From Candidatus Thorarchaeota archaeon (GTDB lineage Archaea > Asgardarchaeota > Thorarchaeia > Thorarchaeales > Thorarchaeaceae), in NCBI GenBank assembly GCA_048884965.1, contig JBHLQH010000012.1, forward strand, positions 1 through 64,000: DNA of 64,000 bases, given 5' to 3'. Below, one piece after another: positions 33,261-38,227 of this stretch. The position numbers and the translations under genes are program-made. Below the pieces are notes generated by a model. It saw only the letters and a program-made list of their open reading frames with translations, searched no databases and had not been told where the DNA came from. Within the stretch, counting starts at the first letter, position 1. Each line of letters opens with the position of its first letter.

Positions 33261-36200
33261 ATGGCTTCTTCTTTCGAAAGCATCAAAGCAAAGGAAAAGA
33301 AGAATGATCAGAAGCAAGAATCACAGCGAAAAGAACAGAACAACCCTCACTTGCATTCAATTCCAATTATACAAACCCAATTGATTTGTCCTTGTAACGG
33401 AACTTGTCCATCATGTCTATCTATCTTACAGGAAAGTAGTATTGACACTCAAGATAGAGATTATTATGAAAAAGAAGCAGAAAGTGTAGCACACCAAATC
33501 ATGCATGGAAAACCAGTTTCATCAATTTCTAGAATAGGTTCATTCTCACCAGTGAAAAGTATGAGTTCACCTACTGAAACCTCAGATGGATTTTCACCAA
33601 TAGTTGCAGAAATTCAAAATGCATCCAATACTGGTAGTCCACTATCAGAAAACCATCGATCCTTCTATGAAGACCGATTTCAACATGATTTCAGCAGAGT
33701 ATCGATTCATTCAGGGATAAAAGCGAATAATCTAGCATCAGATCTACATGCAAGAGCATTCACACTTGGAAATGACATCTTCTTAGGAAGACATGGAACG
33801 AGCTTGTCTAAGGATGCTAGCAGGCATCTATTAGCACACGAGCTAGCACATGTAATTCAGCAAGAATCACTTTCTCGAAGCTCCTTGATCCAAAAGCAGG
33901 CAATTGAATCAGCGCCAGCGCCTATTGTAGAACCAGAAGCAGGTACTGAAACAGAGGAAGAAGCAATAGGTGAGGAGCCACCAACTGAAGTCATCAATAT
34001 TCAAGGTGAAAGTAAATTACCTTTGTCCCCAAAGATCAAGCAATGGTTGGAGAAACAGGATTCGCAACAAGGAATGATCAATGTCCGATTTGGAAACATA
34101 GCTACAGGGAGGATCAACATTAGAAAACAAGGAAACCTCTATTGCTTCAACAAACAGGCACTGACATTGAATCATCCTCTTCTTGCTCGATTGAAGGCGA
34201 TAACATCTGAACTGACACCACAGCTACTTTTGACTGCACCAGAAGGAGAAATACGAGGCTTTATTGGACTTGGAGCTCAATCTCGTGAATCCTTGGATGA
34301 AACTCTGAAAAAGATGCCAGAAGTTATTGGTTTGTCCGGCATTGACCTAAGCCGAATACCTAAATTGACAAATATACTTGAAAAGGGACATTTGAATCTA
34401 GGTGTGTCAGGTCAGGTAATGCTTGGCGGCGCATTTTCAACTGAACTGAATCTTAATGCACAAGACGAGAATATCACATTTTCAGCTTTTGCAGATATCA
34501 AGGTTCGCGGATTGGCATCGGCTAAGATGGAATTGAAACGTGAAGCAGATGGTAAGATCACTGGTGAAGGAACAGCAGATGTGCAAGTATCGAAGAGTGT
34601 TACTGGAACCTTTAATGTTGTGTGGGACGGTAGTGCACTTTCCGGATCAGGTACTGTTGGTTATGAAGGAGAGAAGTTCTCAGGCCAAGTGATGCTCGCT
34701 CTCATGGAACGTGAAGAAGCAAGGCAGAAAGTAGCTGAAAAGAAGGCAGAAGCAGAAGGAAAAGAACCTCCAGCTGCGAAAAAGAAACCTGGCAAGAAGA
34801 AGACAAACTATGTTCTCTTTGGAGAAGGGGATCTGAATTTCTCATTTACTGATTGGCTAAGTGGAACGGCTCATGTGATTGTCGATCAAAAGGGTGACAT
34901 TACTGTAATGGGAGAAATCAAACCTCAGAAAGAATTCGAGATATTCCCACAAAAGGACTATGTTAAGGAACTTCTAAAGGTTGAGGGCAGAGCTAAATAT
35001 GGATTGCCTGTAGTCGGAAATATATTCATCTTCATAGGAGTTGGTTTGGATGCATTTGCAAAATTGGGACCAGCGAAGTTCTACGATATCGTTGTGAAAG
35101 GAACTTACTCTACAGATCCAAAGGTTAGCAAAGACTTCAGTGTTGAAGGACGACTCAATATATCTGCCGCTGCGGGACTTCGTGTTCGTGGAGAAGCTGG
35201 CTTAGGTGTAGAAATACTGGCACATGATATCAAGGCAGGAGCAGGTGTTAATGGAATTGCAGCAATTCGAGGCTATGCTGAAGCGATGACAAAGATAGGT
35301 TATCGTGAGAAAGGAAAAGAGGGAGAAGATAAGAGAGGTGAATTTTTCATTAAAGGTAACTTGGAAATTGCTGCGCAGCCTTTCCTGGGATTGAGTGGAG
35401 ACCTCTTTGTTGAAGTTGATGCCCCTTGGTGGTCACCAGTCCCTGATAAGAAATGGACCTGGCCATTAGGTGGGAAAGAATGGCCTATTGGTGGTAGCTA
35501 TGGACTCAATGCAGGATTGGACTATGTGATTGGCTCTGGAGAACCTCCGACGATCGATCTACAACCTGCTGAATTCTCAGCAGAGAAGTTCATGACAGAT
35601 TTGTATTCAGACAAGGCTAAAGACAAGAGTCCTGAGAAAGAAACTAAGGGCACTTGGAAAGAAAAGGGAACAAAAGAAGCAGATGTACCACCAAAGAAAC
35701 CTAAGCAAGGAAATGCAACTCACGGGAAGATAAAAGAGGCACAGAAAGCAAAATCAAAGGTAAAACCTGGAATATCAAAGAAATCAAAGAAAGAGGTTGG
35801 TCCAAAAACAAAGACCGCTGAGGGAAAAACTGTAGAAGATCTTCAGAAAGAAGCGGCCAAGAAGGGGAAGAAACCGAAAGCTGCACAAGTTCCATCTGGT
35901 GAACTAGAACCTGATAAAGTAACTCCTGAAGCGCAAAAGGGTTCTAAATGGGAGAGAGGAAAAGAAGTTGTAAAGCAAGCTTTGGCTTTCGCAGATAAGA
36001 CTGGAATTGGAGAGAAGGATTTGAAGAGAATCCTGAATTCAATTAGAAAACAGAAACGCTATGGCTTCACTGCATTATATCCAAAACGGATTGGGAAGAA
36101 ATGGGAGATAATTGGTTCCATGAGTAAAGGATCGAAGATAGGTGAAGTCAAAGCAACTGAGAGTACTGGTGAAGAAAAGCCCTATACTTGGGCAGAAATA

Positions 36201-36712: not shown

Positions 36713-38227
36713 ATAGATTGGAAACATAGAGCTGGGATTCGAAAAGATGAAGATCAAAAGGCTCGGAAATCGATAAAAACTCCTGAAGAAGAGAATAGGA
36801 TTGGTAAATGGCAGATTCAGCCAACAACACCAACATGTGCATGTACTGGCTTCTGCCCTGCCTGTAAGGCTTCAAATACTCAGGGTCTGAGTTCTCAAAA
36901 TTACATTGAACAAAGTAGGTTGGAGCATGAAGCGGATAATATCGCAAATCGGATTGCTAGTGTTCCATCCAGTTTTCAGTCTGATGATCTATCTTTATCT
37001 GAGGATTTAACTCCAAATCCAAAATCAAGAAGCGGCGCATCAATAAGCTCATCACTAAAAAATAGAATGGAGTCTATAACGAACACGAGCATGGACAATG
37101 TTCGAGTCCATAACAACACTGCAGCAAATAACATCGCCAACAACTATAATGCAAGAGCAGTCACATTTGGAGATAATATATGGCTGCGAGGAAATGAAAG
37201 TCCTGAGGATACTAAATTAATGGTACATGAACTAGCACATGTAGCTCAGCAACGTAATCAACCGATGATCCAATTGAAAACATCATACCAAAGCCAGCTA
37301 GAAAATACATTCCAAAGAAGTCCCTATATTGAAGAAGGAAAAACCAAATATCATATTGACAAGAATGACATGTGCAATGTTACAACTCTTGCAATGCAAC
37401 TCATCAAGTTGATTGGCAATGAAACGAATACGCGAGATGCAGTTACATCGCTACTGATTAGGAGTAAGTATCCGAAGTCAAAGAGGGATAAGTTGGAAGG
37501 CATGACCATTGCTGACCTACTTATTACTAGATTCTATCAGATAAAGAAATGGAAAGCGAAATTAGAGCTTTACTTTCCTGATAGAAATAAAGATGGCAAA
37601 CTATGGCAGCGCTTCAAAGAAATGAAGGATAAGAGTGGAAGTAGCTTCTTCCAGATGGGTTTGCCTTTAATTATCGTCGGACTAGAAGTGCTACAAGAAG
37701 CCAACATTCAAGGTGAAGGAGAGTCAATTTCCAGCAAGAAATATGCGCTGCCTCCGAAGGCAACTTGGAGCAAAGCAAACGCCAGAGCATATTTTGAAGG
37801 GAAGCTAAAAAATGAACTTGACTCTGGATCAGCGATACTGATGTCCACAAAACTAACAGGTGGGCACATCGTTCATTTGAACAGCGTTATCAGCGGGCCT
37901 ACCGGAGGAGTACTAATCGATGACCCATTTGGTATACGGTTAGGATTTTACATGAAGAATAATTCAGATTTCAGACCAGTTATCCTTCGGGAGCGAAATA
38001 GACACTTCAACATCCTAAAGCGAAGATTGATGCATAACACTCCTTTGTGGAATGAATTGCAAACTCTGAAAAAAGGAGATAGATTCCCCAAAAATGTTGG
38101 TGAACGCAATTTCTACAATTGGGAAGAAGTGGCGAAATTTAAAATTGGTAAATTTGTCAATATCCTTTCGAAGGGCATAGCCATAGATTTCTCATCGCTA
38201 ACGGAAAATTCGATAAACGTCGAGTAG
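36713..38227 (+). CDS. DUF4157 protein with C-terminal C39-like (papain-fold) peptidase; putative effector; likely ATA start at 36713 (ORF track starts at TTG 36920)
   Basis: Frame is open from 36701 and includes 'CACTGFCPAC'; 'NVRVHNN..A...NARAVTFGDNIW...LMVHELAHVAQQ'; 'YQSQLEN', 'MCNVTTLAM', 'GHIV', 'DDPFG'. Confidence 0.8.
   Translation: MDWKHRAGIRKDEDQKARKSIKTPEEENRIGKWQIQPTTPTCACTGFCPACKASNTQGLSSQNYIEQSRLEHEADNIANRIASVPSSFQSDDLSLSEDLTPNPKSRSGASISSSLKNRMESITNTSMDNVRVHNNTAANNIANNYNARAVTFGDNIWLRGNESPEDTKLMVHELAHVAQQRNQPMIQLKTSYQSQLENTFQRSPYIEEGKTKYHIDKNDMCNVTTLAMQLIKLIGNETNTRDAVTSLLIRSKYPKSKRDKLEGMTIADLLITRFYQIKKWKAKLELYFPDRNKDGKLWQRFKEMKDKSGSSFFQMGLPLIIVGLEVLQEANIQGEGESISSKKYALPPKATWSKANARAYFEGKLKNELDSGSAILMSTKLTGGHIVHLNSVISGPTGGVLIDDPFGIRLGFYMKNNSDFRPVILRERNRHFNILKRRLMHNTPLWNELQTLKKGDRFPKNVGERNFYNWEEVAKFKIGKFVNILSKGIAIDFSSLTENSINVE

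Follow-up and report, generated by a model that had tools for sequence, protein, structure and literature searches.

Two adjacent DUF4157 proteins with orphan C-termini, likely payloads of an extracellular contractile injection system from an Asgard-like archaeon

In the polymorphic toxins exported by PVC-type machines, a constant N-terminal head, the PVC-metallopeptidase, is followed by highly diverse C-terminal toxins that include HNH-fold domains and Tox-PLC39; such proteins also occur in archaea and often have no immunity gene (Zhang 2012, PMC3482391). This head, DUF4157, was proposed in the same study to be a toxin-releasing peptidase, has since been described as a core marker of extracellular contractile injection systems (eCIS), together with 'linkers' of more than 1000 aa (Geller 2021, PMC8213781), and has been suggested to act as a chaperone (Danov 2024, PMC11297309). 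The adjacent AlgoCIS genes cgo1 and cgo2, which combine an N-terminal domain (NTD), DUF4157 and different C-terminal domains, encode cargo of the tube lumen, and HExxH mutants left the toxicity of Cgo1 unchanged (Xu 2022, PMC8894135). In a 2026 preprint on AlgoCIS, loading required the disordered NTD leader and the AAA+ protein Alg15, DUF4157 was dispensable, deletion of the NTD abolished loading and NTD fusions loaded foreign proteins; leaders were found to be alike within a system, not between systems (bioRxiv 10.64898/2026.05.27.728243). Here we describe two tandem genes, P1 and P2, from a window of 64,000 nucleotides of a Candidatus Thorarchaeota archaeon (contig JBHLQH010000012.1, positions 1 to 64,000), which share a DUF4157 head and end in unrelated C-terminal domains. 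We consider it likely that they are two payload proteins of this archaeon's single eCIS particle and belong to the PVC-metallopeptidase/DUF4157 polymorphic effector type.

The open reading frame (ORF) list and Pfam matches place P1 and P2 as the last two genes of a single eCIS operon on the forward strand of the window (9320-38227; Table 1), with 47 bp between them. Because the genes 3' of P2 are convergent and metabolic (cupin, class II aldolase and FGGY sugar kinase by Pfam), the pair closes the eCIS locus on its 3' side. DUF4157 with a variable C-terminus at this end of an eCIS operon is a published effector type (PMC3482391, PMC8213781); an earlier sequence-only reading of the DNA had noted the strong association of DUF4157 with eCIS loci and its frequent fusion to toxin domains.

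The profile PF13699 (DUF4157, now 'eCIS_core'; gathering score 22 bits) matched P1 at residues 127-203 (E 1.7e-24, 86.3 bits; 91.8 bits in the genome search) and the P2 frame at residues 116-187 (E 4.5e-18, 65.6 bits; 69.6 bits in the genome search), and the HExxHxxQ zinc-binding signature is present in both, as HELAHVIQQ in P1 and HELAHVAQQ in P2. The two proteins have the same order of elements, namely a hydrophilic leader, CxCxGxCPxC, an ExEA helix and HELAHVxQQ, and their heads are co-linear to one residue, the Cys motif starting at residue 43 in P1 and 42 in P2 and the ExEA motif at 70 and 71. BLASTP aligned P1 and P2 over P1 residues 43-203 only (28% identity, E 5e-5) and found nothing beyond, which bears out the common head and complete divergence described by the sequence-only reading, motifs included. 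The charged N-terminus that it ascribed to both proteins is marked in P2, where K, R, D and E make up 42% of the first 40 residues (top 2% among ORFs of the genome); P1, with 30% (top 23%), is ordinary in this respect.

When every open frame of 60 aa or more was scanned in all six frames of the genome (99 contigs, 4.09 Mb, 95.7% complete), C.C.G.CP.C turned up exactly twice, in P1 and in P2; because these are its sole two occurrences, the Cys motif is not there by chance. A whole-genome profile search with PF13699 matched P1 and P2 only, with no further DUF4157 genes, and no second copy of the leader, trunk or tails was found elsewhere in the assembly. More genes of this kind had been considered possible in the genome, and a whole-genome scan for CxCxGxCPxC plus DUF4157 returned only the pair itself.

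The head was then compared with a wider sample: a HMMER search with P1 residues 1-210 yielded 49,629 cluster representatives at E <= 1e-3. In the top 148 DUF4157 representatives, E.EA[DENQSH]..A was present in 127, and 16 had C.C.G.C..C about 25-30 aa upstream of ExEAD..A. The leader alignment gave the consensus (I/V)Q.K..C[AP]C[GD]G.CP.C, then LQ.KL.(I/V)G.P.D.YE.EAD.VA..VM. The Cys motif is absent from 117 of 119 homologues of the P1 trunk (see below), which mostly have other leaders, and the leader common to P1 and P2 but lacking in these relatives fits the likeness of leaders within a system reported in the 2026 preprint. In the closest relatives of P1 (P0010 and P0012, trunk identity 55-56%), a leader ending in LICPCDG.CPRC is joined straight to the trunk, without ExEA helix or DUF4157. 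In a further locus, from a Blastocatellia metagenome-assembled genome (L009), the DUF4157 part is encoded separately from the trunk part, in neighbouring genes (9860-11755 and 11770-14667), and this tandem pair has its own common leader element, GPPAIRL..SPAQ, a second case of a leader shared within a system.

The entire common module had been proposed as a loading tag. The AlgoCIS results agree with this for the leader, but not for the DUF4157 part, which is dispensable there. Because AlgoCIS loading needs only the leader upstream of DUF4157, the tag is probably the first 50-60 or so residues and not the whole module, and the leader and Cys motif of P0010 and P0012, joined to the trunk without DUF4157, are in line with a leader-only tag. 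It could also be argued that the shared head reflects mere tandem duplication of a DUF4157 gene whose product acts as an autoprotease or chaperone, with loading specified elsewhere. The proposed releasing peptidase (Zhang 2012, PMC3482391) and chaperone (Danov 2024, PMC11297309) functions would suit this explanation, as would heads that share so few identical residues. We judge it very improbable, given that deletion of the AlgoCIS NTD abolishes loading and NTD fusions load foreign proteins (bioRxiv 10.64898/2026.05.27.728243), that the closest relatives of P1 retain the leader and Cys motif where DUF4157 is missing, and that other leaders without the Cys motif are found in most trunk homologues.

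Between head and C-terminus, P1 has a long trunk (Table 1). With P1 residues 205-1134 as the query we found 262 relatives, the best 120 of which are 45-58% identical over P1 residues ~235-870. Named records are from Methanosarcinaceae, Betaproteobacteria, Verrucomicrobiales, Acidobacteria and Pyrinomonadaceae, and the genome scan added homologues from Nitrospirae, Chloroflexia, Methanobacterium, Accumulibacter, Rhodocyclaceae and Blastocatellia. At other eCIS loci the homologues follow baseplate/DUF6519 genes, as in the window, or an AAA+ gene, and the linkage to a cluster of sheath, gp19 tube, baseplate and CDC48-like AAA+ genes shows the same arrangement in loci L004-L009. The C-terminal ends of the family differ: when 117 trunk proteins are compared over their last 160 residues, they form 56 BLAST-unlinked clusters, in which P1 is a singleton, and the Pfam nuclease or deaminase toxin families among the tips include PF13930, PF14411 (LHH), PF15649, PF15604 and PF18785. 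This tip diversity is the polymorphic-toxin pattern, so that for P1 the C-termini are exchangeable among relatives, as the sequence-only reading had supposed, and the constant head with variable C-termini that defines PVC-type polymorphic toxins is found for P1.

The trunk itself matched no Pfam, PHROG, NCBIfam or PDB profile. Its AlphaFold2 (AF2) model, built with a 60-sequence alignment that has about 90 invariant columns, is all-beta with strands of 27-32 residues and a mean predicted local distance difference test score (pLDDT) of 76. Foldseek gave no real match to the model (best E 1.4e-3, TM ~0.1). Model residues ~320-556 (P1 residues ~554-790) resembled small outer-membrane barrels of 8-12 strands with VIA-align Z scores of 7-8.8 over 110-167 residues, which is borderline by the tool's own notes and a level typical of models without a true match. 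The region equivalent to this trunk is called a 'linker' in the literature.

These features raise the alternative, which overlaps with the payload reading, that P1 is chiefly a conserved machine or delivery part, either a membrane-inserting beta-barrel-like translocator for the tip or a lumen-filling or plug element. A stretch of ~550-620 residues kept at 45-58% identity by more than 260 proteins of Bacteria and Archaea, the absence of DUF4157 from ~40% of trunk proteins and the long-stranded, barrel-like model would all be expected of such a part. The structural comparisons named above do not single out a barrel, the producer, as an archaeon, lacks an outer membrane, which would leave the target as the place for a trunk barrel to act, and the variable tips still argue for P1 as a toxin carrier; we therefore regard this alternative as doubtful. 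Similarly speculative is a broader proposal in which the CxCxGxCPxC knuckle would bind metal as part of eCIS loading leaders of a distinct class, would be common to the cargos of one machine, present in roughly one in ten DUF4157 leaders from both Bacteria and Archaea and able to work without DUF4157, and in which the P1 trunk would be a self-inserting beta-barrel-like translocator carrying variable toxin tips across the target membrane.

Returning to P1 as a payload, its trunk leads through a Lys-rich linker into a pre-tip module of ~100 aa, which phmmer detected in 24 of the 119 trunk homologues and which is duplicated in one of them (P0054). The module has no Pfam match, and the equivalent stretch of P0031 is a weak DUF655 match (E 0.0025). 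For the unique tip we found no relatives among longer proteins, no hhalign link to the 55 other tip clusters and no Pfam, NCBIfam, PHROG or PDB match. Protein-atlas leads pointed to GmrSD_C/GH-E at 0.88-0.91. The segments ADHIV, FWNL and ANRSRGDK align with DHFIP, FWNL and CN..K of HNH_4, a motif pattern that alone is weak evidence, and the balance tips slightly towards the tip being an HNH-type nuclease.

The start of P2 required closer inspection. Its frame is open from 36701 for 508 codons after a stop at 36698-36700, and the first canonical start is a TTG at 36920, downstream of the Cys motif, with no ATG, GTG or TTG earlier. Five nucleotides ahead of the in-frame ATA at 36713 lies the Shine-Dalgarno sequence AAAGGAGGT, a spacing similar to that of the other operon genes, which have GGAGG or GAGG 5-10 nt ahead of their starts. 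The strongest argument for 36713 as the true N-terminus is that P2, counted from there (504 aa), is co-linear with the head of P1. Public gene calls for P2 (435 and 378 aa) start 69 or 126 codons downstream and lose the conserved leader and Cys motif. The ATA may be a weak natural start, a recent change from ATG or a consensus error. P2 could also be a silenced or decaying gene, for example after such a change, and the locus could have one effective effector, as the lack of any ATG, GTG or TTG between the stop and the Cys motif, the downstream starts of both public calls and the absence of relatives for comparison would allow. We consider decay improbable: the frame has stayed open throughout, HExxH and the Cys, His and Asp of the tail (see below) are intact, AAAGGAGGT is a perfect Shine-Dalgarno placed as in the other operon genes, and the leader read from ATA matches P1 in position to within one residue.

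Beyond DUF4157, the P2 tail is an orphan. No relatives were found among 5.8 billion proteins of 279-889 aa or in a metagenome scan, searches with P2 gave DUF4157-only matches beyond its own public record, and PDB sequence, NCBIfam and PHROG searches returned nothing for the tail. Pfam C39_2 (PF13529) scored 12.9 bits (E 0.17), below its gathering score of 24 bits, and the atlas neighbours are all papain-like peptidases (0.85-0.88). For hhalign we built a C39_2 profile from 24 domains from genomes of the same phylum; a PF13529 search of the host genome itself (G000) had given no match at 1e-8. The tail aligned with profile positions 3-138 of 138, with Cys221, His385 and Asp404 on the catalytic columns, at a score of 22.1 (P 0.0086). 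Shuffled tails scored 12.7 +/- 2.2 (maximum 19.6), and 0 of 150 reached 22.1. From its sequence, the P2 tail is probably a papain-like C39-type cysteine peptidase.

Several observations weigh against the reading of P1 and P2 as toxic payloads. Neither C-terminus reaches the threshold of any curated toxin family. The AF2 single-sequence model of the P2 tail has a pLDDT of only 35. For the P1 tip, GmrSD_C was rejected as a candidate, its hhalign score of 11.9 equalling the shuffle mean and thus being no better than random, and the score against HNH_4 (16.2) stands only about 2.6 standard deviations above shuffles (10.3 +/- 2.3, maximum 22.2). A mere linker is seldom as strongly conserved as the P1 trunk. 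Lacking a canonical start codon, P2 may have low expression or none. An immunity gene is not found next to P1 or P2: the gap between them is short, and the genes that follow are those for the cupin, aldolase and sugar kinase.

By analogy with AlgoCIS Cgo1 and Cgo2, the payload reading would work as follows. Each protein opens with a hydrophilic leader of ~40 residues, then the four-cysteine knuckle, the ExEA helix and the zincin-like DUF4157. The AAA+ ATPase of the operon, presumed to be the cargo loader from its likeness to Alg15 (bioRxiv 10.64898/2026.05.27.728243), would recognise the leader, unfold the payload and thread it into the tube lumen, and contraction of the sheath would expel it into a target cell. 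DUF4157 would be an accessory domain, either a releasing peptidase or a chaperone, the literature being divided on its function. The working end would be formed in P1 by the all-beta trunk, Lys-rich linker, pre-tip module and ~145-aa tip, and in P2 by the orphan domain. The sequence data show how the domains are arranged, that both genes are linked to the operon, that the motif is specific to them and that tips are polymorphic in the P1 family; from this we infer that both proteins are loaded and delivered in this way and that their C-termini would be catalytically active and toxic.

The layout resembles that of Cgo1 (ALPR1_12695, 498 aa) and Cgo2 (ALPR1_12690, 1228 aa) of Algoriphagus machipongonensis, adjacent short and long genes with a leader, DUF4157 and unrelated C-terminal domains, and the cluster includes an AAA+ gene in AlgoCIS as in the window; this likeness is drawn by description, from layout and DUF4157. 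The present case differs from AlgoCIS in its archaeal host, in the non-canonical start of P2 and in a leader that contains CxCxGxCPxC, of which there is no mention in PMC8894135 or bioRxiv 10.64898/2026.05.27.728243. The likeness to the PVC-metallopeptidase/DUF4157 toxins (PMC3482391, PMC8213781, PMC11297309) lies in the HExxHxxQ zincin-like head, the high variability of the C-terminal domains (toxins in that group), the place of the genes as the 3' part of an eCIS operon, the long 'linker' after the head and the absence, common in that group, of an immunity gene; the toxins listed with this head include Tox-PLC39 and several of HNH fold. The differences are that the P1 'linker' is a foldable domain of ~550 aa, strongly conserved and without a Pfam family, and that both C-terminal ends are orphans below every family threshold. 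In the PVC effectors Pdp1 and Pnf (PMC11495950), an N-terminal leader likewise takes the payload to the tube with the operon AAA+ protein (Pvc15), a parallel that holds for P1 and P2 by analogy; those payloads have no DUF4157, and in sequence their leaders are not related.

The layout is thus already described, and partly tested, in bacteria, and P1 and P2 are a new example, not a new kind. They leave the general picture of eCIS payload construction unchanged and extend the cargo design of leader, DUF4157 and variable tail, characterised experimentally elsewhere, to an Asgard-like archaeon. The literature searched seems to hold no description of the Cys knuckle, of the conserved trunk or of the ATA start. 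With its four cysteines in compact form, the leader motif may mark out loading signals of a recognisable class and would then help in the engineering of payloads; the locus also brings to notice a very conserved, unannotated trunk domain behind the 'linker' of the literature and two orphan candidate enzymatic ends with no detectable relatives.

Table 1. Features of P1, P2 and the eCIS operon in the window
Feature	Position	Strand	Evidence or remark
P1, 1134-aa DUF4157 effector with conserved trunk and unique tip	33261..36665	+	ORF, GAGG-type Shine-Dalgarno upstream; PF13699
P1 leader (aa 1-42) and Cys motif CPCNGTCPSC (aa 43-52, 33387-33416)	33261..33416	+	sequence; aligned with 13 other DUF4157/trunk leaders
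P1 ExEA helix motif EKEAESVA, aa 70-77	33468..33491	+	sequence
P1 DUF4157/eCIS_core, HELAH at aa 193-197	33639..33869	+	PF13699
P1 all-beta trunk, aa ~235-780	33963..35600	+	262 homologues; AF2 model
P1 Lys-rich low-complexity linker, aa ~781-884	35601..35912	+	sequence; pLDDT 31-36
P1 pre-tip module, aa ~885-990	35913..36230	+	phmmer
P1 unique tip, aa ~991-1134	36231..36662	+	HNH-like motifs DH (aa 1024-1025), WNL, NRSRGDK
P2 Shine-Dalgarno AAAGGAGGT	36700..36708	+	5 nt before in-frame ATA 36713
P2, 504-aa DUF4157 effector if started at ATA 36713	36713..38227	+	open frame; PF13699
P2 Cys motif CACTGFCPAC, aa 42-51	36836..36865	+	sequence
P2 ExEA helix motif EHEADNIA, aa 71-78	36923..36946	+	sequence
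P2 DUF4157/eCIS_core with HELAH	37046..37261	+	PF13699
P2 orphan C-terminal domain, aa ~187-504, candidate papain-like (C39-like) cysteine peptidase	37271..38224	+	Cys221, His385, Asp404
Sheath	9320-11212	+	Pfam
gp19-like tube	11227-11745	+	Pfam
T4-baseplate-like protein	within operon	+	Pfam
Pvc16-N	13552-15033	+	Pfam
AAA+ ATPase (Pvc15/Alg15-like), presumed cargo loader	15033..17216	+	PF00004 E 2.5e-29, aa 497-621
GPD hub and OB spike proteins	18486-20216	+	Pfam
DUF4280 gene	within operon, upstream of P1	+	Pfam
Large baseplate proteins	within operon, upstream of P1	+	Pfam
DUF6519/beta-helix protein	28514-32143	+	Pfam
Helix-hairpin-helix (HhH) protein	32156-33250	+	Pfam

The HhH protein just 5' of P1 (364 aa) starts with an uncharacterised domain and ends in an HhH_5 motif, with a Lys/Pro-rich repeat linker between the two. 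It was considered as a fusion partner in P1 homologues and rejected, BLAST of the window protein against the homologues returning nothing; in P0013, P0022, P0031 and P0069 the HHH Pfam matches come at the very C-terminal end, behind the PF13930 nuclease, and are unrelated to the window protein.

The host encodes a two-repeat TATA-binding protein (C24:22070-22585), whose profile otherwise matched archaeal control genomes only, and carries 36 sites that match the Ras family, of which about 20 are full-length matches at E < 1e-34. A search for profilin, an Asgard marker, matched neither the genome nor the control and carries no weight. Expansion of Ras-like GTPases is a trait of Asgard archaea, and the TATA-binding protein and the Ras-family matches are consistent with an archaeon with GTPase expansion that is Asgard-like. 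Because no clear PF13699 gene was found in 40 related genomes, where a single match was marginal (22.1 bits), the eCIS locus is patchy and was probably acquired horizontally. The other members of the 90% clusters are the same protein with 0-1 differences. The G+C content is ~0.38-0.41 across the operon (window positions 8000-38000), compared with 0.43-0.47 in both flanks, and the GC-skew changes sign at ~38 kb, where the gene orientation flips.

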